DNA of 38,978 bases from NCBI GenBank assembly GCA_046709585.1, contig JBKEFO010000001.1, positions 1 through 38,978 on the forward strand. The letters run 5' to 3'. The position numbers were made by a program, and so were the translations under genes. The stretch comes from Marivirga sp. GTDB taxonomy: Bacteria; Bacteroidota; Bacteroidia; Cytophagales; Cyclobacteriaceae. Numbering within the stretch: the stretch's first letter is position 1; every line of letters begins with the position of its first letter. Positions 8,237 through 23,619 of this stretch are shown piece after piece. Under the pieces are notes generated by a model. The model saw nothing but the letters and a program-made list of their open reading frames with translations, searched no databases and was not told where the DNA came from.

Positions 8237-9349
8237 ATGGCATTTAATTTTTTTAAGAAGAAAGAGAAAGATAATTCCGCTAATAAGAAAAATGATCGGT
8301 ATAAGGAACTAACAGTACGTCAGGTTGTACATGCTACAAAAGATGCGATTGTTATTGAATTTGAAAAGCCGGAATGGGAAATCAGCTATACTGCTGGCCA
8401 GTTTCTTACCTTGATCACAGATATTAACGGAGAGAGTGTAAGAAGAGCTTATTCGCTATGCACCTCCCCTCTGGTGGACGAATTTCCAGCAGTAACTGTA
8501 AAGAGGGTAGAAGGTGGCAGGATGTCTAACTACTTAAATGACAACCTTAAAGCAGGGGAAAGTATGCAAGTACTGGAGCCGATGGGTAATTTTACTACTG
8601 AGGTGGTTGCAGAGAAAAAGAGACACCTTATCATGTTTGCTGGTGGGAGTGGTATCACGCCAATGATGGGCATTTCCAAATCAATTTTGCATGGCGAAAG
8701 CGATAGTATTATCTCATTAATTTATGCGAATAGAAATCTTGAATCTGTTATCTTCAAAAAAGAGTTTGATGCCCTCGAAGATAAGTATGAAGGCCGCATG
8801 CATGTGATTCATGTGTTAGATGACGCACCACTAAACTGGCAAGGAGAGTCTGGTCTGTTAAATGAAGAGATGCTGAAAAAAATATTCGTCAGGATTCCTA
8901 GCTGGGGAAGTGAGCAAACGCAGTATCTCATGTGTGGTCCTGAGGGGATGATGAAGAATGTGGAGCAAGCATTAGAAGTGTTGGAAATCCCTAAGGCTAA
9001 TATTTTTAAAGAAAGTTTTGTTCAAGGTACTATTGACAAAGCAAATAAGTCAACGGCAAAAGTAGAGGTAGGTGGCGATTATGAGGTAACCATTTTGTTT
9101 GATGATGAGGAACATGTATTCACAGTGCCTGCAGACAAAAGTATATTAGAGACAGCCTTAGACGCCGACATAGATTTGCCATTCTCTTGTCAGAGTGGTT
9201 TGTGTACTGCATGTAGAGGTAAATTGTTATCTGGAACGATGCATTTAGATGAGGACGAAGGGCTCTCTGATTCAGAAAAAGAGGAGGGTTACGTATTGAC
9301 CTGCGTAGGACATCCGACTTCTGAGGGAGTAAAAATTAAAATCGGATAA
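8237..9349 (+). CDS. PaaE-like ferredoxin-NAD(P)H reductase (FAD/NAD-binding plus C-terminal 2Fe-2S)
   Basis: RAYSL, GQFLT, AGGSGITP, YLMCGP and the 2Fe-2S motif CQSGLCTAC...C. Confidence 0.92.
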   Translation: MAFNFFKKKEKDNSANKKNDRYKELTVRQVVHATKDAIVIEFEKPEWEISYTAGQFLTLITDINGESVRRAYSLCTSPLVDEFPAVTVKRVEGGRMSNYLNDNLKAGESMQVLEPMGNFTTEVVAEKKRHLIMFAGGSGITPMMGISKSILHGESDSIISLIYANRNLESVIFKKEFDALEDKYEGRMHVIHVLDDAPLNWQGESGLLNEEMLKKIFVRIPSWGSEQTQYLMCGPEGMMKNVEQALEVLEIPKANIFKESFVQGTIDKANKSTAKVEVGGDYEVTILFDDEEHVFTVPADKSILETALDADIDLPFSCQSGLCTACRGKLLSGTMHLDEDEGLSDSEKEEGYVLTCVGHPTSEGVKIKIG

Positions 9350-9377
9350 ATTTCATATAGCGTTTTAGTGAGAATAG

Positions 9378-9401
9378 AAGAGGACATTGTCCTCTTTTTT
9401 T
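9378..9401 (+). terminator. Intrinsic terminator after the reductase gene
   Basis: AAGAGGAC-ATT-GTCCTC followed by a T run; argues against the GTG at 9368 being the pepF start. Confidence 0.65.
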
Positions 9402-9454
9402 ATGAAGGGAATGGAAGCTTAAATGGAGACTTAGTTCGTCCAAAAAAAAATATT

Positions 9455-11167
9455 ATGGAATTAAAAATAAAACATAGAGCCTTTTTACCCGCCGATTTTA
9501 AGGTAGAAGATTGGGCAGGTTTGAAGCCTTATTTTGAGGGTCTATTAGTGGCTGAAATTTCTTCTGAGGTAGATTTAGCCAAGTGGTTCAGAGACATGAG
9601 TGAGTTAGAAGCCGTGGTGTCCGAGGATTTAGCTTGGCGTTATATTAAGATGACCTGCGATACAATAGATGAGGCTTTATCCGAAGCATACGAGTTTTTT
9701 GTGAGAGAGATACAACCCCATATTGCACCATTCTCGGATCAATTGAATAAAAAAGCCTTAGCATCTCCTTATCTTGTTATGTTGAAAAATAAAGAGGGTT
9801 TTGATATCATGATTCGTGAGATGGAAAAGGATGTTAAAATTTATAGAGTGGAGAATATTGCATTGGAAACAGAAATCGCAAGCAAAGCGCAAAAATTCGG
9901 TGCCATTTCTGGTGCTATGGATATCCAGCATGATGGAAAAGAAATGACTCTACAGCAAGCGGCAGTAATGCTCCAGTCACCAGATCGTAAATTAAGGGCA
10001 GAGGTATACCATAAAATAAGTGATCGAAGATTGGTTGATAAGGAAAAGCTGAATGCTCTTTTTAATGAATTAATTAAAATAAGGACTGAAACAGCACAAA
10101 ATGCTGGTTTTGAAAACTTTAGAGACTATATGTTTACTGCAATGGGGCGTTTTGATTATGCTCCTGATGATTGCTTCGACTTCCATGAATCCGTAAAAAC
10201 AGAGGTGGTACCTCTATTAAATAGTATTGCAATAGACAGAAAAGAAAAATTAGGTTTAGAGGCATTGAAGCCTTGGGATAAAGCAGTTGATATTTCAGGA
10301 AAAGCTGCATTAAGACCCTTTTCTGATGCGAGAGACTTAACAAAGAGAACGGTAAGCTGCTTCAAAAGGCTAGATCCATTCTTGGGAGAGTGTCTTGAAA
10401 AGATGGAAGAAATGGGGCATCTAGATTTAGATTCAAGGAAAGGGAAATCACCAGGTGGCTATAATTATCCTTTGTCAGAGACAGGAGTGCCTTTCATCTT
10501 CATGAACGCTACTTCTACTTTGAGTGATATGGTGACTTTGCTGCATGAGGGTGGTCATGCTGTACATTCTTTTTTAATGAATGATTTAGAACTGACTGAT
10601 TTTAAGAATACTCCTTCTGAAGTAGCGGAGTTGGCTTCGATGAGTATGGAACTCATAACTATGGATCATTGGGATGTGTTCTTTGACAATGAGGAAGACT
10701 TAAAAAGAGCTAAAAGGGAACACTTAGAACAAATTATTGAAACGTTGCCATGGGTGGCTACTATAGATAAGTTTCAACATTGGCTTTACGAAAATCCCAA
10801 CCATACTGTAGAGGAAAGAACGGACGAATGGAATATCATATTTGATGACTTTTCCGATAAAATTACAGACTGGTCTGACTTAGAAGATAAAAAAGATAGT
10901 CTTTGGCAAAAACAGCTACACCTTTTTGAAGTACCATTTTATTATATTGAGTATGGAATGGCACAGCTTGGTGCCATAGCAGTTTGGAGAAATTTCAAGG
11001 AAGATAATGAGAAGGGGCTCGCTTCGTATTTATTAGCCTTGCAGTTAGGTTACACGAAATCAATCCCTGAAATCTATGAAGCCGCAAATATAAAATTTGA
11101 TTTCAGTAAAGAAAATATTAGCACCTTGATGAACTTCGTAAAAGAACAGCTCAACAAGCTAGATTAA
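9455..11167 (+). CDS. pepF: M3B family oligoendopeptidase F
   Basis: RKGKSPGGY, HEXXH (LHEGGH), EVAELAS, HLFEVPFYYIEY. Start moved from 9368 to the ATG at 9455 (A-rich context, downstream of the terminator). Confidence 0.92.
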   Translation: MELKIKHRAFLPADFKVEDWAGLKPYFEGLLVAEISSEVDLAKWFRDMSELEAVVSEDLAWRYIKMTCDTIDEALSEAYEFFVREIQPHIAPFSDQLNKKALASPYLVMLKNKEGFDIMIREMEKDVKIYRVENIALETEIASKAQKFGAISGAMDIQHDGKEMTLQQAAVMLQSPDRKLRAEVYHKISDRRLVDKEKLNALFNELIKIRTETAQNAGFENFRDYMFTAMGRFDYAPDDCFDFHESVKTEVVPLLNSIAIDRKEKLGLEALKPWDKAVDISGKAALRPFSDARDLTKRTVSCFKRLDPFLGECLEKMEEMGHLDLDSRKGKSPGGYNYPLSETGVPFIFMNATSTLSDMVTLLHEGGHAVHSFLMNDLELTDFKNTPSEVAELASMSMELITMDHWDVFFDNEEDLKRAKREHLEQIIETLPWVATIDKFQHWLYENPNHTVEERTDEWNIIFDDFSDKITDWSDLEDKKDSLWQKQLHLFEVPFYYIEYGMAQLGAIAVWRNFKEDNEKGLASYLLALQLGYTKSIPEIYEAANIKFDFSKENISTLMNFVKEQLNKLD

Positions 11168-11311
11168 TTAATATTTAGGAGGGTATTATTTCAGTATTCT
11201 TTTACCCTGAATAGTAGGATATTTTTTTTATTGAGTAGTAAAAAAAAGTTTAAATGTACTTTTTCAGTAACAATTAGTTATTAAATTTATTCAAAAAAAA
11301 GGTAAAAAAAT

Positions 11312-11854
11312 ATGAATAATTCGACAGAGGGGGTAACGTTATCATCAGCATTTATTAAAGACATACTAGATCTTTATGAAGGGAGAGATTCTTTGCAAAA
11401 TGAACTGAAAGCTATGGCTGAAGGTATTGATACTTCCAACGTTATGAAATTCGCACCGATGGAGACATATAACAAGATGTGCAATTGGATCGAAGAACAA
11501 ATAGGTCAGGTAAATACCAAACGATTAGGTCGGAAGATCGGAAATACTGCTTATCATGGGATGATGGCAAATGGCTTTATAGAAAATGGTGCTATGCCAT
11601 CAGAAATGATGGAAGGACTAGCTAAAGTTGCATCTGCCATGATTAAAGATCCTCAAAAAAGGGGCTGGGAAATACTAGAAAATTCTTCGAAATATATAAT
11701 CATGAGAAGGACCCAAACATTCAATAGCACGCTTCAATTTGGCTTATTAGACGAACTGGTAAGGAAAACAAAAGTTGTTTCCCCCAAAGTTGATTATGTG
11801 AAAAGCGTTGCAAACGGAGATGAATTTGATGATTATAAAGTATCATGGTTTTAG
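11312..11854 (+). CDS. Hypothetical protein, possible V4R/HNOB-like ligand-binding fold
   Basis: 180-aa monocistronic ORF with an A-rich start context; pattern 'LGRKIG..GWEI....GLL....V..GDEFDDYKVSW' recalls V4R/H-NOX-like domains (inference). Confidence 0.7.
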   Translation: MNNSTEGVTLSSAFIKDILDLYEGRDSLQNELKAMAEGIDTSNVMKFAPMETYNKMCNWIEEQIGQVNTKRLGRKIGNTAYHGMMANGFIENGAMPSEMMEGLAKVASAMIKDPQKRGWEILENSSKYIIMRRTQTFNSTLQFGLLDELVRKTKVVSPKVDYVKSVANGDEFDDYKVSWF

Positions 11855-11864
11855 TCATAAACCT

Positions 11865-11907
11865 ATAAATGCCCTTTCTAATTTCTTTAAATAGAAAGGG
11901 CATTTAT
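11865..11907. terminator. Bidirectional terminator hairpin
   Basis: 16-bp perfect inverted repeat ATAAATGCCCTTTCTA / TAGAAAGGGCATTTAT between convergent genes. Confidence 0.85.
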
Positions 11908-11908
11908 T

Positions 11909-13999
11909 TTAATAAGCTAGTAGTGTCCCTATTTCATCAGCAACCTTTTCGGCATTTGGTAACATGGCATGCTCCCAAATTACATTAAGACCTATTGCAG
12001 GGAGGTTTAAGGCACCATATGCTCGAACGGGTGCATCTAAATACTCAAAGCAGTGTTGATTCAGTCTGCCAGCCAGTGATTCTGCGAAAGAGTTCATTAA
12101 AGGCTCTTCGGTTAACACCAAAGCACGGCCGTGTTTCTTTACAGATTCAGATACAGTTTCCCAATCTAAAGGATTCAATGTTCTTAAATCGATAATCTCT
12201 ACTCGACCATCATACTTCTTACTTGCCTCTGTTGCCCAATACACGCCCATGCCGTACGTAATAATAGTCATCGATAATGAGTCGCTGATCATCGCGATGC
12301 TCGCTTCTTGAGCTATTCTAGCCTTTCCTAGAGGTATTACATAATCTGCAGCTGGTTCAAAGGTTTTGGCTTCATCTGTTCCAGGTACTTTTGACCAATA
12401 TAAGCCCTTATGCTCTAAACATATTACAGGGTTGGGATCTAGAAAAGCAGCTTTTAATAAACCTTTCATGTCGGCTGCATTGGAAGGGTAGACAACTTTT
12501 ATGCCTCTAATAGTTAGCAAGGTGGACTCGATACTTCCTGAGTGGTATGGACCACCGCCACCGTAGGCGCCGATAGGGATTCTAATCAAAGCCTGAATAG
12601 GGAATTGTCCATTAGATAAATAACAAGATTTAGATAATTCTTCTACGAGCTGATTCATTCCTGGCCAGATGTAATCGGCAAATTGTATTTCAACAATGGG
12701 TTTAACCCCAACAGCCGACATACCAGCTGTACTACCAACAATATAGGCCTCTTGGATAGGCGTGTTAAACACACGTTCATCCCCGTATTTCTTTGCCAGG
12801 TTAGCGGCTTCTCTAAATACACCACCCAAGGCTCCTCCCACATCCTGTCCATAGAAAAGTGCTTCAGGGTAGTTTTTTAATATATCATCTACAGCATGTA
12901 AGGCGGCGTCTACCATAACAACTTTTTCAGCATTTGCAGGATGCCTTTCTCCTGACTCCTCTGTTATTGTAGTGGGTGCAAACTCATGTAGCATCACATC
13001 TGCAGCGTCGGGATCTTCGGCAGCTACAGCTCTTTCAAAGGCAGTATTAGCAGCTTTTATAGCGCTCTGTTCAATAGTGGTCAATGCTGTTTCTTCAAAA
13101 CCATTTTCAAGTAAATAGTTTAATAATCTAGGTATGGGGTCTCCTACTGCATGTATTTCTAAATCATCCTCTGTACGGTACCACTCTTTTCGAACGCCAG
13201 AAGTATGATGGCCCAGTAAAGGGCAATTGGCATGCACCAAAACAGGACCTTTACGGCTTCTTACATGCGCAATGGCGTCACTCATTTTTTCGTAGGAGTC
13301 GTTAAAATCTGATCCATTTGCTTGAATGCGTTTCAAACCTTTAAAGCCTGCAGCAAATTCATAAGCATCCATTGCACGCATTTCTGGCCCAGTGGCAGAA
13401 ATACCCCAGTCATTATCTTGCACGAGATAAATGATAGGCAGATTCTTTAAAACTGCCATTTGAAGCGCTTCCGAAACCTCACCTTCTGTAACAGACCCAT
13501 CACCTAAAGAACATATGACCACTGGTTTTTCAATACTAGACTCTTCTAAGCCCTGACTTTCCATGTACTTTAACGCATGAGCCATCCCCGTTGCAGGAAT
13601 AGCTTGCATGCCCGTGGCAGAACTTTGATGTGGTATGGTAGGGAATCCCTTCCTTTTTAGCGAAGGGTGGTTATAATATGTTCTACCTCCAGAAAATGGG
13701 TCGCCCTTCTTTGCCATTAGCTGTAACATTAGCTCATAAGGTTCCATTCCTATACCTAATAGGAAAGATTCATCGCGGTAATAAGGTGCTGCGAAATCGA
13801 TTGCAGTTAGCTGCATAGAGGCAGCTAACTGAATAGCTTCATGGCCTCTAGAGGTACTGTGGACGTACTTAGCTGCCACAGGTTTGTTTTCATCATAGAT
13901 TTCAGCCATGCGCTTTGCAGTATGCATTAGCTCATAGGCTCTTAATAATACATCTTCCTTGATTTTTAACTTACTCTTTTGGCTCGTTTTTGTCGTCAT
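11909..13999 (-). CDS. 2-oxoacid (probably branched-chain) dehydrogenase E1, fused alpha+beta subunits
   Basis: TPP motif GDGSVTEG...DN, beta-subunit motifs GQDVG..GGVFR, FNTPIQE, EIQFADY, IDLRTLNPLD. Confidence 0.92.
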   Translation of the reverse strand: MTTKTSQKSKLKIKEDVLLRAYELMHTAKRMAEIYDENKPVAAKYVHSTSRGHEAIQLAASMQLTAIDFAAPYYRDESFLLGIGMEPYELMLQLMAKKGDPFSGGRTYYNHPSLKRKGFPTIPHQSSATGMQAIPATGMAHALKYMESQGLEESSIEKPVVICSLGDGSVTEGEVSEALQMAVLKNLPIIYLVQDNDWGISATGPEMRAMDAYEFAAGFKGLKRIQANGSDFNDSYEKMSDAIAHVRSRKGPVLVHANCPLLGHHTSGVRKEWYRTEDDLEIHAVGDPIPRLLNYLLENGFEETALTTIEQSAIKAANTAFERAVAAEDPDAADVMLHEFAPTTITEESGERHPANAEKVVMVDAALHAVDDILKNYPEALFYGQDVGGALGGVFREAANLAKKYGDERVFNTPIQEAYIVGSTAGMSAVGVKPIVEIQFADYIWPGMNQLVEELSKSCYLSNGQFPIQALIRIPIGAYGGGGPYHSGSIESTLLTIRGIKVVYPSNAADMKGLLKAAFLDPNPVICLEHKGLYWSKVPGTDEAKTFEPAADYVIPLGKARIAQEASIAMISDSLSMTIITYGMGVYWATEASKKYDGRVEIIDLRTLNPLDWETVSESVKKHGRALVLTEEPLMNSFAESLAGRLNQHCFEYLDAPVRAYGALNLPAIGLNVIWEHAMLPNAEKVADEIGTLLAY

Positions 14000-14042
14000 C
14001 CTCTAATATTTTCTACGATATTTTATACCTTCGTTCTTCAGT

Positions 14043-14060
14043 CAAAAATAGTTAATTTTG
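14043..14060. promoter_or_regulatory. Back-to-back Bacteroidota -7 promoter elements for the E1 gene (-) and hemF (+)
   Basis: CAAAAATA at 14043-14050 (TATTTTTG on the minus strand) and TAATTTTG at 14053-14060, both matching TAnnTTTG. Confidence 0.6.
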
Positions 14061-14116
14061 ATTGAAGGCTAAGGGAATAGTAGACAAATTTGATTAACGG
14101 AGTATAGCTTACATAC

Positions 14117-15037
14117 ATGAATATAAATAAGGAGGAGATAAGTCGGTGGTTTTTAGAGCTGCAAAACAGCATATGTGATCTTGTAGCTAAAGAAGATGGT
14201 AAAGGAAGCTTTCAGGTAGATGAATGGCAACATACTGCTGGAGGAGGAGGGCGATCACGCGTGCTCTTGAATGGAAATGTGTTAGAAAAAGGGGGTGTAA
14301 ATTTTAGCGCTGTAGAAGGCGAGGCGCCGGAGGCACTTTTGAAAACATTGGAGATTGATACTGCTGAAGAGAGTAGTGCATTAAAATTTTATGCCACGGG
14401 CGTTTCTATCGTAATGCACCCTAATAATCCTTTGGTACCGATAATTCATATGAATGTGCGCTATTTTGAATTAAGCAATGGACTCTATTGGTTCGGTGGA
14501 GGCATAGACCTTACCCCACATATTGTTGACAAGGAACAAGCGACATGGTTCCATAGTCAGTTGAAGTCTGCTTGTGATCATCACGATTCAGCTTACTATC
14601 CAAAGTTTAAGCAATGGGCTGATGACTATTTTTATTTACCTCATAGAAATGAGACACGTGGGGTTGGAGGAATATTTTTTGACCGGCTCAAAGCTGATGA
14701 TCGAAAAAGTAAATTAGGGGTCTTTGAGTTTGTGAAATCCGTAGGGAATAGCTTTGCGCCTATCTACACCCACTTAATGAACATAAATAAAGGAAAAGAG
14801 TATACTGCAGATGAAAAAGCTTGGCAGATGCTACGCAGAGGAAGGTATGTTGAGTTTAACTTAGTTTGGGATAGGGGAACAAAGTTTGGCCTGCAAACAG
14901 GCGGGAGAACAGAATCAATATTAATGAGTATGCCGCCAGCCGCTCAGTGGGAATATGATTATAAACAAACAAAAGATTTTGAAAAAGAAACTACCGAACT
15001 GTTAAAGAAAGGAGTTGATTGGTTAGCAATCAACTGA
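14117..15037 (+). CDS. hemF: Oxygen-dependent coproporphyrinogen III oxidase
   Basis: EKGGVNFS, HMNVRYF, WFGGGIDLTP, RRGRYVEFNLVWDRGTKFGL. Confidence 0.97.
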   Translation: MNINKEEISRWFLELQNSICDLVAKEDGKGSFQVDEWQHTAGGGGRSRVLLNGNVLEKGGVNFSAVEGEAPEALLKTLEIDTAEESSALKFYATGVSIVMHPNNPLVPIIHMNVRYFELSNGLYWFGGGIDLTPHIVDKEQATWFHSQLKSACDHHDSAYYPKFKQWADDYFYLPHRNETRGVGGIFFDRLKADDRKSKLGVFEFVKSVGNSFAPIYTHLMNINKGKEYTADEKAWQMLRRGRYVEFNLVWDRGTKFGLQTGGRTESILMSMPPAAQWEYDYKQTKDFEKETTELLKKGVDWLAIN

Positions 15038-15075
15038 AAATCAATATTTTAAATACTGTAGTAATAGTTAAATAG

Positions 15076-15651
15076 ATGATAGAGCAATTTAATATCTGGG
15101 ATCAACAATTATTTTTATGGCTTAATGGCTTTCATGCTGATTGGTTAGATCCAATGATGTTATTCATCACAGCAAAAAACACCTGGATTCCACTGTATTT
15201 GCTAATCGTAGTTATTTTTATAAGAAAACTGGGCTGGCGCAGCATCTATCTACTAGCGGCTTGCGGTTTATTAATATTGTTAGCAGATCAGTCTGCTTCT
15301 GGTCTTTTTAAACCTTTCTTCGAAAGGTTAAGGCCTTGTCATAACCCTCAAATACAGGACGTGGTACATACCATAAAGCATTGTGGTGGGCAATATGGCT
15401 TTGCTAGCTCGCATGCCTCAAATACTTTCGCCCTTGCTACCTTTCTATTTCTTCTCTATAGAAATAAATGGAGCAAATTAATGTTGGGGTGGGCAGTAGT
15501 AGTTTCGTACTCTAGAATATATGCAGGAGTACATTATCCTGCAGATATTCTAGTTGGCGCTATTTTGGGAGCGCTCTCTGCTATTATTGTTTACTTTCTT
15601 TATAGGAAGTACTTTTCTAATGACCTACAGAAAATTCATAGTTTTATATAG
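15076..15651 (+). CDS. PAP2 family phosphatase
   Basis: K...RLRP, F.SSHA, SRIYAGVHYPAD motifs; TM helices. Confidence 0.93.
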   Translation: MIEQFNIWDQQLFLWLNGFHADWLDPMMLFITAKNTWIPLYLLIVVIFIRKLGWRSIYLLAACGLLILLADQSASGLFKPFFERLRPCHNPQIQDVVHTIKHCGGQYGFASSHASNTFALATFLFLLYRNKWSKLMLGWAVVVSYSRIYAGVHYPADILVGAILGALSAIIVYFLYRKYFSNDLQKIHSFI

Positions 15652-16323
15652 CTTTTCTTTATACGAGGCACCTATCGGAATAGATTTTACTTTAATATGA
15701 ATGCTTAAATCCTCTATGAAGTCAATCTTCTCCAGGTTAACTATAAATGACCTATGGACCCTTACGAATCTGCCTTCGGGTAATTTTTTCTCAACACCTT
15801 TCATGGTATGGTGCACAATATATTTTTTGGCTTCTGTATTGATTACCACATAATCTGCCAAAGCTTCTATAAATAAAATATCAGCTAATTTCAGATGAAT
15901 AATCTTTCCATCACTTTTGATGAAGATGTGTTCTACTTTATCTTTCTTATTTCTGAAGGTTTCAATGTTTACCCTCGCTTTGTTTATGGCCTGGCTAAAT
16001 CTATCGTATTCAAAAGGTTTTATCAGGTAATCCGTAACTCTTTGGTCGAAAGCATCCACTGCGTAGCTATCATTAGCTGTAACTAGAATTACTTCATAGC
16101 CATTATTTAATCTTTGGACTAATTCAATACCAGTCATTTCTGGCATTTGAACGTCAAGAAAAATAATATCTATGTCGTTTTCTTCTAGTAGCTCAATGGC
16201 TTTAGTAGCACTGTCCGCCTCTACGATAAGCTTTAGCCCATTAGTTTCTACAATTTGCTTGCTAATATATTGTCTGAATATAGGGTCATCATCGACCACC
16301 ATACAATTTATCTCTGCCGCCAT
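15625..16323 (-). CDS. LytTR family two-component response regulator
   Basis: REC domain (VDDD, FLDVQMP, DYLIKP) plus LytTR domain (FVRVHRSFIVNL). Confidence 0.95.
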   Translation of the reverse strand: MAAEINCMVVDDDPIFRQYISKQIVETNGLKLIVEADSATKAIELLEENDIDIIFLDVQMPEMTGIELVQRLNNGYEVILVTANDSYAVDAFDQRVTDYLIKPFEYDRFSQAINKARVNIETFRNKKDKVEHIFIKSDGKIIHLKLADILFIEALADYVVINTEAKKYIVHHTMKGVEKKLPEGRFVRVHRSFIVNLEKIDFIEDLSIHIKVKSIPIGASYKEKLYKTMNFL

Positions 16324-16330
16324 GCTGCTA

Positions 16331-16921
16331 TTATTTATTGTTTAAATTGACCAGTTTATATACATATTTCCCAATTATATCGAATTCTATGTTTACTTCA
16401 TCGTTTTTTTTAATTTTTCTGAAGGTTGTATGTTCATAAGTGTAAGGAATGATAGCCACGCTAAATAGTTTATCTGTAATGTCGAAGCAAGTTAAACTAA
16501 CCCCATTGATACAAACGGAACCTTTTTCTACCAATACATTTTCCTTACTATCGTATGAAAAAGTAAATACCCAGCTACCATTTTCTTCTTTTTCGTTAAA
16601 GCAAGTAGCTTTTGAATCAACATGACCTTGAACGATATGTCCATCAAGACGCCCATTCATTTGCATACAGCGCTCTAAATTCACTGGATCTCCAATAGCT
16701 AAGTTCCCGAGGGTAGACTTTTTAAGTGTTTCGTCAATTGCTACCACCTTGTGGGTACCTCCTTCCACAGCAGTGACCGTAAGACATACACCATTGTGGG
16801 AGATGCTTTGGTCTATTTTTAATTCCTGCGAAAGCGTACTCTCGACAGTGATTATCAAGTTACTCTTTTCTTTTTGTAAGTCTCTTATTTCTCCTAAAGT
16901 TTCTATAATGCCTGTAAACAT
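16331..16921 (-). CDS. ribE: Riboflavin synthase (alpha chain)
   Basis: MFTGIIE N-terminus, NGVCLTV, GHIVQGHVD, NIEFDIIGKY. Confidence 0.97.
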   Translation of the reverse strand: MFTGIIETLGEIRDLQKEKSNLIITVESTLSQELKIDQSISHNGVCLTVTAVEGGTHKVVAIDETLKKSTLGNLAIGDPVNLERCMQMNGRLDGHIVQGHVDSKATCFNEKEENGSWVFTFSYDSKENVLVEKGSVCINGVSLTCFDITDKLFSVAIIPYTYEHTTFRKIKKNDEVNIEFDIIGKYVYKLVNLNNK

Positions 16922-18843: not shown

Positions 18844-19167
18844 ATGGAAAGAGAACAAGAAGAAATTTTTTCAAAGAGAATTAGGGCAGGAAAGCGAACC
18901 TATTTTTTTGATGTAAAAACGACCAGAGCTAATGATTACTACTTAACAATCACTGAAAGTAAAAGGAAGTACAAGGAAGATGGTTTCAGTTATGAAAAGC
19001 ACAAAATATTTTTGTACAAAGAGGATTTTAATAAGTTCGTTGGCGCATTATCAGAAACTGTCGGCCATATTAAGACAGAACTTATGCCGGAATTTGATTT
19101 TTCTCAATTTGATAGAGAGAATTCTGAAGGGGAGGAGTCTGAGAATAATTCTTTGTCTTGGGACTAA
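18844..19167 (+). CDS. PUR-family (DUF3276) nucleic-acid-binding protein
   Basis: IFSK.IRAGKRTYFFDVK...DYYLTITESK...KHKIFLYKEDF.KF signature. Confidence 0.92.
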   Translation: MEREQEEIFSKRIRAGKRTYFFDVKTTRANDYYLTITESKRKYKEDGFSYEKHKIFLYKEDFNKFVGALSETVGHIKTELMPEFDFSQFDRENSEGEESENNSLSWD

Positions 19168-19236: not shown

Positions 19237-20328
19237 GTGAATAGAATAAAACCAATTTTATACCTAGTAGGTGTTGCATTAATTGTATTAATAATAAGTT
19301 TACTTTTTGCCGATATCCTAATATATGTAGTGCTCTCGTTGATAATTGCTACAATATTAAGACCCTTGGTAAGCTATTTAAATAAGCTGTATTTTTTCGG
19401 CTATAATTTACCAAAAATTGTTTCCATAATAATTGGCTATGGTATTTTGGTGGGTTTTATTGTTTTGTTTGTAGGCTTATTTGTTCCGTTAATATCCGAG
19501 CAAATCCGCATCCTAAATCAACTTGATTATAATGCGCTCTACCAAAGTATCTCAGAGCCTATAGCAGCAATTGAAAATTTCCTATTTGAATCTTTTCCTT
19601 CCATAGGGGAAGAGGGTTTTTTGATTGATACCATCAGAAACAATATTCTTGGTTTCGTTCAAACATTAGATTTTAGCTCCCTTCTAAATAATTTACTTTC
19701 TTTTACTGGTAGCTTCTTTGTGGGGCTATTAGCAGTAAGTTTTATTAGTTTTTTCATGCTTTTTGAAAAAGGTATGCTGAGGAGGCGAATTATATCAATT
19801 ATTCCAAATAAGTATTTTGAAGTGTCAATAGGCGCTATTTACAAGATTGAAAGCTTACTTTCTAACTACCTTTTAGGCCTGTTATTTCAAATGATTGCCA
19901 TATTTACTATTGCCGCTGTAGGCTTAAGTATTTTTGGTGTCAAGTATGCCATTACTATAGCTGTATTTGCCGCTGTTGCTAACTTAATTCCCTATGCAGG
20001 GCCACTTTTGGGTTCGCTATTTGGAATAATTGTTGGCGTAACTACAGGAGGATTATTTGAGATGAATAATGAGTTGTTTTTCCTTCTAGTTAAAATTGTT
20101 TCCGTTTTTGCAACAGTCCAGGTAACAGACAACATTCTCCTGCAACCACTTATTTTCTCAAAAAGTGTAAAAGCGCATCCATTAGAAATTTTTGTTATTA
20201 TCTTTGCAGGCGCATCCTTAGCAGGGGTCGTTGGCATGATCGCGGCGATACCGGTTTATACAGTACTACGGGTTATATTTGTAGAGCTGTACAATGGATA
20301 CCGAAGATATAAGATATTTCAGAATTAA
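19237..20328 (+). CDS. AI-2E (PerM) family transporter
   Basis: Multi-TM; NLIPYAGP, DN.LLQP.I....HPL, G.VGMI.AIP. Confidence 0.92.
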   Translation: MNRIKPILYLVGVALIVLIISLLFADILIYVVLSLIIATILRPLVSYLNKLYFFGYNLPKIVSIIIGYGILVGFIVLFVGLFVPLISEQIRILNQLDYNALYQSISEPIAAIENFLFESFPSIGEEGFLIDTIRNNILGFVQTLDFSSLLNNLLSFTGSFFVGLLAVSFISFFMLFEKGMLRRRIISIIPNKYFEVSIGAIYKIESLLSNYLLGLLFQMIAIFTIAAVGLSIFGVKYAITIAVFAAVANLIPYAGPLLGSLFGIIVGVTTGGLFEMNNELFFLLVKIVSVFATVQVTDNILLQPLIFSKSVKAHPLEIFVIIFAGASLAGVVGMIAAIPVYTVLRVIFVELYNGYRRYKIFQN

Positions 20329-20339
20329 AATTATAAAAA

Positions 20340-21437
20340 ATGGGCTTAAGATGCGGAATTGTTGGTTTACCGAATGTAGGTAAATCTACGCTGTTCAATG
20401 CGCTTTCAAATGCTAAAGCTGAGGCGGCAAACTTTCCTTTTTGTACAATAGAACCAAATGTAGGTGTAATTAGTGTGCCTGATGAGCGTTTAGATATTTT
20501 AAAGGATTTAGTAAATCCCAATAAGGTTGTACCAACGATTATAGAATTTGTGGATATAGCAGGTTTGGTAGAAGGCGCTAGCAAAGGTGAGGGCTTAGGT
20601 AATAAGTTTCTGGCAAACATCAGAGAGGTCGATGCGATAGTGCATGTGGTACGCTGTTTTGAAGATGATAATATTACACATGTCGCCGGTAGGGTAAACC
20701 CGGTGGCTGATAAGGATATTATTGATACGGAACTACAACTCAAAGATTTAGACTCTGTTGAAAAGAAAATACAGAAAACAGAAAAAGTAGCTAAGTCAGG
20801 AGATGCCAAAGCAAAACAGGAACTAGCTATTCTTCTTAAATACAAGGAAGCTTTAGAAGCAGGTAAAAATGCAAGGACATTGGACTTGACAAGTGACGAG
20901 AAGGAGCCTATCCGAGATCTGATGCTTTTAACTGATAAGCCTGTTATCTATGTGACAAATGTTGAAGAAGCATCGGCAATGAGTGGAAATAAATTTGTCG
21001 ACCAATTCAAGGAATATGTGAAAGAGGAGGATGCTGAAGTGATAGTGGTAAGTGCTGCCATTGAATCACAAATAGCTGAATTTGACGATGAAGAAGAGAA
21101 AGCAATGTTCCTTGGTGAATATGGACTTACTGAGTCTGGACTAAATAAGTTGATTCGTGCATCGTATACTATCTTGGACTTGATTACATACTTTACAGCT
21201 GGTGTAACAGAAGTGAGAGCTTGGACCATTAAGAAAGGGTGGAAAGCTCCTGCAGCGGCTGGCGTGATCCATACTGATTTTGAAAAAGGCTTTATCAAAG
21301 CAGAGGTAATAAAGTTGGAGAATTACAGGAAATATAAAACAGAACAAGCTTGTAAAGAGGCAGGTAAAATGGCCATCGAAGGAAAAGAGTATGTTGTCCA
21401 TGATGGAGACATAATGCACTTTCGATTTAATGTGTAG
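20340..21437 (+). CDS. ychF: Ribosome-binding ATPase YchF
   Basis: [47 protein letters not shown]-terminal TGS domain. Confidence 0.98.
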
Positions 21438-21551: not shown

Positions 21552-22337
21552 GTGCGTGTAAGGATAATATTTGAAAATAAAGACAAGGGGGCAGCTGTCC
21601 CATTTCATCATCAATATCATTTATATCGTCTTTTTAAAGGCATAATAAAGAAATGTAATGATGAAAACATGGAAAGTTTTAAGCATTACAACTTTTCAGG
21701 ATTGAAAGGGCAAACCAAAGTTAGTAAGAATGGTCTACATTTTTATAGCAACAAAATAACGGTAGTTTTCTCGTGTTCCAATAAGGCCTTCTTAGATAAA
21801 ATAATAGAGCAAATTTTTAGTTTTGAATTACTGAAGGTTAGAAATTTACCCATCAAGCCCTTATCTGTGGAACTGGAATCTGAAATCCACTTTGAAGAGA
21901 AAATGGAATTTATTTGTATTTCCCCAATTGTACAGCTGAAAGCGGAGTTTTTCGATGATGCTAGTAAAGAATTTATACACCCTTGCAGCGAGCAATTTGC
22001 GCATAATCTAAAGCAAAATTTAATTAGCCGATTTCCGCAATTTGAACCCTATGAGTCGGCTATTCAATTTACACCTGACCGTTCTTACGTAGATAGGATA
22101 GAGAGAAATGGAAAAAAATATTCTCGAATATATCCTTTATTTGATCAAGACATACCCTATGAGGTTAGGGGATATACGCTTCCTTTTATGCTCGAAGCAC
22201 CAGTAGATTTGCAGAAATTAGTTTACAACAACGGTATTGGCCTTTACTGTGATAAGGGCTTTGGTATGTTAGATCTAGCAAATGTTCAGCCTGGAACAGA
22301 AACAGTCACTTATTTTGACGGGCAGTTCGTGAATTGA
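21552..22337 (+). CDS. cas6: Stand-alone Cas6-family (RAMP) endoribonuclease-like protein
   Basis: N-terminal MRVRIIF..VPFHHQY, FKHYNFSGL, mid-protein CISPIV, and the C-terminal G-rich loop GIGLYCDKGFGML (GhGxxxxxGhG); 261 aa; GTG start. Confidence 0.88.
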   Translation: MRVRIIFENKDKGAAVPFHHQYHLYRLFKGIIKKCNDENMESFKHYNFSGLKGQTKVSKNGLHFYSNKITVVFSCSNKAFLDKIIEQIFSFELLKVRNLPIKPLSVELESEIHFEEKMEFICISPIVQLKAEFFDDASKEFIHPCSEQFAHNLKQNLISRFPQFEPYESAIQFTPDRSYVDRIERNGKKYSRIYPLFDQDIPYEVRGYTLPFMLEAPVDLQKLVYNNGIGLYCDKGFGMLDLANVQPGTETVTYFDGQFVN

Positions 22338-23619
22338 ATTGGGTGTAGCCAATTAGTTCATCGTACCTCAGTTGTGGATTGCTGTAGTAAATCGCGATAT
22401 CATAGCTATTTTCTGTATCAACGTAACTGCCTTCAAATTTATAAACGGGTTCCTGTGGAGTGAAATACATGTATTCATAAAACCCCTGCTTCAGTTTATA
22501 TGTCCTTTGGTAAGTGCTCGTACTCTCATTATACTTCATTATACTGTTGGAATTAGTTTCCCAATTATTGAATTCTCCGATTATGTAAATGGGCTCACTC
22601 TGTTGCGGACTAGCTAGTCGGAAAGTAACATCAATATAATCATTCACCAGCTCTGTAGTTTGTCGTTCTCTGTTACCGATGAAAAACTGACCATTATTGT
22701 CTTGCCATTCTCTATATGCCTGGGAAGCTCGACTTCTATCAATGCTGGAAAGCATTTTGATAGGGGTCTGTGTTTGGTCTATTTCTGAAATATTAGCACC
22801 TTTAAAATTAACAGTACTTATATCTATAAACCTAAATTCGCTGAATCCAACGAAATTCAGTGTCCCATCGAAAAAATTGTATTGGAGCACCTCACCTTGT
22901 ATAAATCTAGGCTCATTTAATGTGATCTCATTATTCCAGTTATTATTTTGTTTAACTACTGGATAAATATCCCCTCCTCTATTTAATATATTTGCACCAT
23001 TTAGGCGTACTTCAAATTCTACTTCTTGCATTGTTCTTCTATTTCTTACCAAGCTAGAAGGGACAATTTTGTAGGCGACAGAAGTCTTATTTTCATATAC
23101 TCTGAAGCGCTCGGATAGAACGATATCATTTTCATTATTTCCTTTATATACGACGAGGAGGTAGTTTCCGGTAACCTCGACGGCAGGAACCTTGAATTGG
23201 TAATGGATATACGGTATTTTGGTGTCAAAGGAATATTCGTAATCTTGAATAGGTATTTGATTATATCCATCTAAATAATTCATTGATAATACCTGACTCA
23301 GCTTAGTCCAGTCTTTATTGAGATGGAGTATTCTTGCCTGATATAGTTGCTGCTGATTTGACAAGTCGTCAAAGGTAAGTATTAAGCTTTGCTGACTATT
23401 TAATTCTATTGAAGGATTGTTTCGCGCTGTATTAGAGCCGTTTTTGAAGGTTAAAAGCTGAACAGTTTTTATATTGTTTTGATAGGAATTATTGTTGAAT
23501 TGTAAGGCAGGGAATCTTTGCGTAGTACTAGTATTCGGCTGGATTGGAACGCAAGCATAGCTCACTAAAAACCCAATTACTAACGTGCATTTTAAAATAA
23601 AATATTTTATTCCAACCAT
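22306..23619 (-). CDS. DUF5103 family lipoprotein (T9SS plug protein-like)
   Basis: Lipobox SYAC; IKTVQL, LTFDDL, YIHYQF, GNYLL.VY, EFRFID, LKQGFYEY.Y, EGS...TEN.Y...YD.LIG. Confidence 0.85.
   Translation of the reverse strand: MVGIKYFILKCTLVIGFLVSYACVPIQPNTSTTQRFPALQFNNNSYQNNIKTVQLLTFKNGSNTARNNPSIELNSQQSLILTFDDLSNQQQLYQARILHLNKDWTKLSQVLSMNYLDGYNQIPIQDYEYSFDTKIPYIHYQFKVPAVEVTGNYLLVVYKGNNENDIVLSERFRVYENKTSVAYKIVPSSLVRNRRTMQEVEFEVRLNGANILNRGGDIYPVVKQNNNWNNEITLNEPRFIQGEVLQYNFFDGTLNFVGFSEFRFIDISTVNFKGANISEIDQTQTPIKMLSSIDRSRASQAYREWQDNNGQFFIGNRERQTTELVNDYIDVTFRLASPQQSEPIYIIGEFNNWETNSNSIMKYNESTSTYQRTYKLKQGFYEYMYFTPQEPVYKFEGSYVDTENSYDIAIYYSNPQLRYDELIGYTQFNSRTARQNK

Follow-up and report, generated by a model that had tools for sequence, protein, structure and literature searches.

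A solitary Cas6-family gene beside ychF in Cytophagales: a candidate for domestication outside CRISPR

Cas6 is the RNA-cutting enzyme of CRISPR systems. In the order Cytophagales, a Cas6-family gene, hereafter solo cas6, behaves like part of the core genome and has neither the catalytic residues nor the CRISPR context expected of a Cas6. Its independence from CRISPR is very probable. The best explanation, in which our confidence is evenly balanced, is a chromosomally inherited, CRISPR-independent gene whose product is a non-cutting, sequence-specific binder of host RNA. No description of this family was found in the open-licence papers searched.

A Cas6 protein encoded beside ychF

The window, i.e., the whole stretch of DNA analysed, comprises 38,978 nucleotides of a Marivirga sp. 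assembly (GCA_046709585.1, contig JBKEFO010000001.1, positions 1 to 38,978). The following features are referred to below:

18844..19167, + strand: DUF3276 gene, belonging to the ancestral gene order
19237..20328, + strand: AI-2E transporter gene, belonging to the ancestral gene order
20340..21437, + strand: ychF, conserved upstream neighbour in 44 of 59 loci (context, not a demonstrated functional partner)
21552..22337, + strand: solo Cas6-family gene, 261 aa, GTG start
21600..21620, + strand: PFHHQ motif where helix 1 begins, the homologue of PYNHQ in PfCas6
21636..21698, + strand: remnant of the catalytic region, from sequence alignment
21678..21698, + strand: FKHYNFS motif
21699..21719, + strand: GLKGQTK motif, conserved and clade-specific
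21921..21932, + strand: SPIV motif
22113..22187, + strand: C-terminal RAMP hairpin with invariant K188, R192, E204, R206 and Y208
22233..22265, + strand: glycine-rich loop, four glycines invariant
22306..23619, - strand: T9SS plug gene, convergent neighbour in 39 of 59 loci (context only)

A reading made from the sequence alone had described an intact 261-aa ORF with Cas6 motifs, located between ychF and a T9SS plug gene and without other cas genes nearby, and all of this was borne out. Translation of 21552-22337 is uninterrupted, with zero internal stops and with the motifs at the positions listed, both neighbours match their family profiles, and neither another cas gene nor a transposase family was found among the 33 window ORFs scanned (30 by Pfam, 9 by NCBIfam, 6 by both). 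The ORF at the left window end was covered by the genome-wide local profile search; it is long, occupies positions 1 to about 2430 on the minus strand and runs off the contig end, lying upstream of a PorP/SprF gene and divergent from it. The plug gene and solo cas6 overlap tail-to-tail by 32 bp, and the DUF3276 gene still adjoins ychF in genomes without solo cas6.

The solo ORF is a PfCas6-type Cas6. The profile search proposed to check this assignment places it in the family, with a PF01881 match above the curated cut-off (E 1.2e-17, 65 bits against 23) and a TIGR01877 match slightly below its own (57.3 bits against 58.65). A structure model built from 41 orthologues reached a pLDDT of 94 and predicts a fold of two tandem RAMP domains, on which residues were placed from sequence alignment and secondary structure; a single-sequence fold was discarded (pLDDT 43.5). 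The top seven Foldseek matches of the model range from E 4e-18 to 8e-15. The best structural matches are 3QJJ, 5YI6, 3UFC, 3I4H and 3PKM (VIA Z 22.9-25.0, rmsd 2.2-2.5), the next family scoring 15.5. Two of them are non-catalytic Pyrococcus paralogues, namely 3QJJ (Z 25.0, rmsd 2.2 over 225 aligned residues) and 3UFC (Z 24.8), but 5YI6 is tied with the latter at Z 24.8 and PfCas6 follows closely at Z 23.5, hence the structural ranking cannot part inactive from active relatives.

The family is well delimited within Cas6. In a library clustered at 50% identity, full-length solo members score at least 183 bits against the family profile and the next full-length Cas6 matches at most 97. The orthologues carry a clade-specific insertion and a C-terminal tail. 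The Marivirga-like lineage, comprising the window gene and L031-L037, has a long branch (0.57) in the tree and is without a 7-9 residue insertion that the other orthologues conserve.

Distribution, inheritance and CRISPR context

Solo Cas6 was searched for in 250 other genomes of the order, each at least 90% complete. Matches occurred in 160 of them, and after removal of five weak ones (E 1.6e-8 or weaker) 155 carriers remained at E < 1e-30, nearly always with one strong match each and including Marivirga, Fulvivirga, Roseivirga, Cyclobacterium and Echinicola. Each family tends to have the gene in nearly all of its genomes or in almost none: it is found in 17/18 genomes of f1, 18/18 of f16, 19/19 of f17 and 11/11 of f7, and it is absent or nearly so from f11 (0/8), f12 (0/19), f14 (0/19), f22 (0/9) and f3 (1/19), which indicates that it is dispensable in several lineages. 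In five closed non-carriers the family profile was also negative and ychF was found in all five. In one of these five, L113, the plug gene directly follows ychF in convergent orientation with no gene in the interval, which points to a clean loss of solo cas6. Among 301 genomes sampled from the phylum, matches outside the order reach only E 5e-26, and the 15 full-length out-of-order matches that were aligned all have the canonical triad; a few divergent solo members may exist there, one of them labelled as a Sphingobacteriia MAG.

Inheritance was followed in 59 loci, which lean to families f1 and f17 and of which 39 came from best-hit lists. Ancestral context is kept on one side or the other in 47 of them (ychF upstream in 44, the plug gene downstream in 39), and in the remaining 12 the gene is relocated among other housekeeping genes and still kept. 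The closed 1.45-Mb genome of L060 has the DUF3276-ychF-cas6 order. In a quick tree search, the 59 orthologues form one clade (SH-aLRT 99) on a long stem (0.98), apart from 23 CRISPR-linked Cas6 and 6 Cas6b. When Cas6 and YchF trees were compared over 44 loci, 12 of 16 splits with support of at least 95 were shared and none conflicted; at support 80, three of 22 conflicted. The Cas6 tree is about twice as long as that of YchF (13.3 against 6.6), so that Cas6 evolves about twice as fast. The dN/dS ratio lies between 0.016 and 0.119 in the 11 of 15 pairs giving a value, most of them near saturation, and where dS is below 0.5 (four pairs) it is 0.034-0.119 for solo cas6 and 0-0.131 for ychF. Solo cas6 is thus under purifying selection, and the proposed vertical inheritance is upheld by the single clade, the synteny and a tree without strongly supported conflict with that of YchF.

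Descent from a defence gene and patchy loss at the family level would suit a protein acting alone against phages, as an RNA sensor or a nuclease. This reading is extremely unlikely, since the gene evolves slowly, occupies a fixed housekeeping location and follows a vertical tree; moreover, no viral copy was found among 20 pattern matches and no defence neighbours were seen in the loci examined.

The relation to CRISPR was surveyed with markers in the same 250 genomes, giving 113 matches for cas1, 60 over the cut-off for cas3 (seven candidates scored per genome, one sub-cut-off case being added by judgement) and 48 for RAMP genes. Among the 155 carriers, 62 have cas3 or RAMP genes and 93 have neither, and 60 are also without cas1, 15 of these being assembled in 10 contigs or fewer. 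Five closed carriers gave no match to two Cas7 families or to Cas2. Four of the five were searched for arrays with the I-B repeat end and had none, a control genome giving 15 matches. The two single array-pattern matches in closed genomes were set aside as not being repeat arrays in the sequence listed. Retention of solo cas6 far exceeds the presence of CRISPR in the carrier-rich families, f16 having no RAMP gene, f1 three class 1 genomes and f17 five. No cas gene is an immediate neighbour of solo cas6 in the loci listed, the nearest case being L043, where cas1 lies about 9 kb off behind unrelated genes. The survey thus finds the gene retained in genomes where no other cas genes were found, and the CRISPR independence proposed from the window is supported.

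The Marivirga sp. assembly itself contains no cas1, Cas6b, RAMP gene, array or over-cut-off cas3 match, but at 79.5% completeness and in 345 contigs it cannot show absence by itself. Its weak cas3-profile matches were rejected as helicase-like ORFs below the cut-off.

From carriers, 40 regions around class 1 markers were taken, of which 39 are effector loci. Their own cas6 is present in 33. Among the six that lack one, a contig end truncates one locus, and the remaining five (L047, L056, L117, L118 and L122) are of type III-A and have neither cas6 nor cas1, in genomes which also hold a type I system. Such loci leave room for a Cas6 encoded on the chromosome and acting in trans, either as a helper or as a damper of type I/III systems that are acquired transiently. 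PMC12669027 states that Cas6 works in trans for most type III systems, PMC12102369 that one Cas6 can inhibit another system, and RAMP (type III) markers are commoner in carriers (40/155) than in non-carriers (8/95), a comparison in which related genomes are not independent. However, the 33 loci with their own cas6 and the 93 carriers without a class 1 marker, in lineages of which selection is nevertheless strong, speak against such a helper. In addition, three of the cas6-less III-A genomes have a CRISPR-linked cas6 at another locus and two a cas3 locus, and the CRISPR repeats of these genomes differ so widely in sequence that they would hardly fit one conserved Cas6. This explanation is therefore very unlikely. 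Beside the type III locus of L049 (16905-19133), three ORFs with unusual low-complexity ends and no Pfam match were observed.

The active site and a candidate binding mechanism

The catalytic triad of PfCas6 is composed of Tyr31, His46 and Lys52 (PMC3652601). In a joint alignment of the 59 solo orthologues with the 23 CRISPR-linked Cas6, the catalytic Tyr is found in none of the former and in 20 of the latter. The Tyr31 column holds Tyr or His in 23/23 CRISPR-linked proteins and is variable in the solo clade (K in 30/59, then N, Q, T and E). The catalytic His, kept in 20/23 CRISPR-linked Cas6, falls in a gap in 59/59 solo orthologues, as the sequence-only reading had supposed for the window protein. 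In all of them the gap spans the His helix and amounts to about 15 residues, and alignments to 3PKM and 5YI6 show it as well. The Lys52 column has Lys in only 9/59 solo orthologues, compared to Lys or Arg in 20/23 CRISPR-linked Cas6. The window protein has K29 and K44 at the Tyr31 and Lys52 columns, respectively. As judged from these alignments, the canonical catalytic residues are lost in the solo clade. Consequently, of the two activities that had been put forward, i.e., processing or regulating host RNAs, processing becomes the weaker half, Tyr and His being gone from 59/59 orthologues and Lys not being conserved.

Loss of the triad is not proof of inactivity, because the His-less SsoCas6 is active and, in three short CRISPR-linked Cas6, the Tyr column holds His while the His helix is missing. 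SsoCas6 (Sso1437) processes crRNA with its conserved Lys25, Lys28, Lys51 and Arg231 (PMC3652601); like solo Cas6 it is without the catalytic His, but it is structurally far more distant (Z about 10.5). A type I-B locus, L046:2638-4130, has two tandem cas6 genes, a long one with the triad and a short one without the His helix; the short one has N-terminal motifs like those of the solo family, and the tree does not resolve it as their sister.

An N-terminal HHQYH cluster, together with the missing His, had been taken to mean that the active site may be rewired or binding-only. The cluster turns out to be an ordinary Cas6 motif: HHQ aligns with PYNHQ of PfCas6 and with 5YI6, and is thus inherited and not evidence for rewiring. 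What is particular to the solo clade is that H20 and Q21 have become invariant (59/59), His being found at the H20 column in 3/23 CRISPR-linked Cas6. Likewise, K52 is present in 58/59 and G53 and Q54 in 59/59, all three positions being variable in CRISPR-linked Cas6. A domesticated enzyme with a rebuilt site (H20, Q21, K52, Q54), cutting structured host RNA to leave 5′-OH and cyclic-phosphate ends, would account for this conservation and for the intact G-loop (four Gly in 59/59 solo and 23/23 CRISPR-linked Cas6), and the active sites of Cas6 enzymes are plastic, as exemplified by the cleavage without His by SsoCas6 (PMC3652601). We nonetheless regard it as unlikely, since H20 sits about nine residues upstream of the Tyr31 column, at the start of the helix, the Tyr/His column common to all CRISPR-linked Cas6 is variable in the solo clade, and in these alignments helix 1 is variable as well, with no conserved basic cluster of the SsoCas6 kind. 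At the G-loop, near which SsoCas6-type enzymes also have conserved basic residues, K235 is present in 39/59 solo orthologues.

R2, K139, K188, R192 and R206 are invariant among the 59 orthologues; R2, R192 and R206, on the sheet and the hairpin, are basic residues common to CRISPR Cas6, and R192 and R206 align with K/R in 22/23 CRISPR-linked proteins. The retention of the basic residues of the cleft together with the loss of the catalytic residues points to a protein that would bind a short motif in host RNA without cutting it. Solo Cas6 is near neutral (median pI 6.7, net charge -1) in comparison with the basic CRISPR-linked Cas6 (8.7, +4), which weakens the inference of RNA binding. This neutrality, the clade-specific insertion and tail, and the invariant acidic and aromatic residues D176, Y179, E204, Y208 and D241 would also be expected if the domesticated fold bound a protein partner or a small nucleotide instead of RNA. 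That a non-RNA ligand is involved is decidedly unlikely, given the invariance of R2, R192 and R206 and the change of neighbours in 12/59 loci; in addition, no fused form was found among 7994 long candidates, which is a weak test. Whether the protein binds host RNA, cuts it with a rebuilt site or binds a ligand of another kind, each of these readings implies domestication.

Binding by an inactive Cas6 has been described for a structural relative. PhCas6nc of Pyrococcus (PH0350; 3QJJ, 3QJP) and the P. furiosus paralogue (3UFC) have the same class of fold as solo Cas6 and no triad; both are described as inactive, and PhCas6nc is described as binding repeat RNA in its inter-domain cleft. Their identity to solo Cas6 is about 19-20% and they bind CRISPR repeats. 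The Pyrococcus hosts of non-catalytic Cas6 have CRISPR systems. In contrast, solo Cas6 spans the order, is passed on vertically and also occurs without CRISPR. PfCas6 (3I4H, 3PKM), 5YI6 and the Bacteroidota type I-B/III Cas6 likewise have the tandem RAMP fold, the G-loop, PxxHQ, SP and the basic hairpin residues, but these PfCas6-type and Bacteroidota enzymes keep Tyr-His-Lys (20/23 here) and sit in cas operons, neither of which holds for solo Cas6.

The mechanism by binding alone, for which and against which we see about equal chances, could be as follows. A type I-B/III-type cas6 would have been captured beside ychF early in the order; the helix with the catalytic His would then have disappeared from its product, and the basic cleft between the two RAMP domains would have been retained. 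In PfCas6 and in the inactive PhCas6nc, this cleft grips the first ~10 nt of the single-stranded repeat (PMC3727216). Solo Cas6 may similarly grip a short motif within a non-coding RNA or the leader of an mRNA, and its grip could alter the folding, stability or translation of that RNA. The level of the protein could be kept low by its conserved start codon, which is GTG or TTG in 50/59 orthologues and ATG in eight, with one more having GTG a codon earlier, compared to ATG in 44/44 ychF and 23/23 CRISPR-linked cas6 genes.

RNA targets and significance for Cytophagales

Several searches were directed at RNA targets and control elements, and none of them yielded a target. No conserved RNA element was visible in the 59 leaders or detected from codon use, Rfam gave no match in the window, and 18 loci gave two tRNAs and no other RNA match. 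A promoter of the form TAnnTTTG is found upstream in 9/59 loci against a shuffle mean of 8.5 and was rejected as a general feature; six of the nine loci are close kin, with the motif at 75-81 nt. Searching the Marivirga sp. genome with 14 array repeats for repeat-like solo units gave one match with seven mismatches, dispersed intergenic words showed no link to solo cas6, and the supplements of PMC7311316 hold no fitness entry for the gene.

Other repeats were observed during these searches. A non-coding repeat of at least 170 bases occurs in four copies and one partial copy at G000:C19 (about 8800-16600) and C285 (about 3770), the four copies being 1.7-3.3 kb apart in a cassette-like arrangement. 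At G000:C7, C61 and C318 lie other repeated sequences, which presumably resemble group II intron 3′ ends and have a further repeat family beside them. An 18-base palindromic hairpin, REP-like, is present at G000:C9, C22, C33, C40, C66, C78 and others, with 25 matches on both strands at two mismatches or fewer.

Cas RAMP proteins that a lineage keeps for a role other than adaptive immunity have been described, namely HRAMP, ARAMP, STAND-linked I-E, CAST and type IV (PMC8730458), and section 6 of that review, on exapted derivatives, lists no lone Cas6. These derivatives are multi-gene modules with ties to defence or mobile elements, whereas solo cas6 is a single gene located among housekeeping genes, without a Cas5/Cas7-type module and without a Cas7 family match in the five closed carriers. 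If true, a lone Cas6 that is fixed in the core genome and evolves slowly would mean that a CRISPR part has been absorbed into housekeeping.

There is also a consequence for annotation, in that database entries carry the label “CRISPR-associated endoribonuclease” even for genomes in which solo cas6 was the only cas gene found. The domestication reading is directly testable in Echinicola vietnamensis DSM 17526, which encodes an orthologue (WP_015266326.1, UniProt L0G1P0) and for which a barcoded transposon library exists (10.1101/158840). That a nuclease-dead Cas6 serves the whole order as a core, single-copy post-transcriptional regulator, recognising a short motif in host RNA, perhaps in an RNA that derives from a repeat and was itself domesticated, and no longer linked to immunity, is a proposal to which we give somewhat less than even confidence. 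Solo Cas6 may thereby expose an RNA control circuit in Cytophagales.
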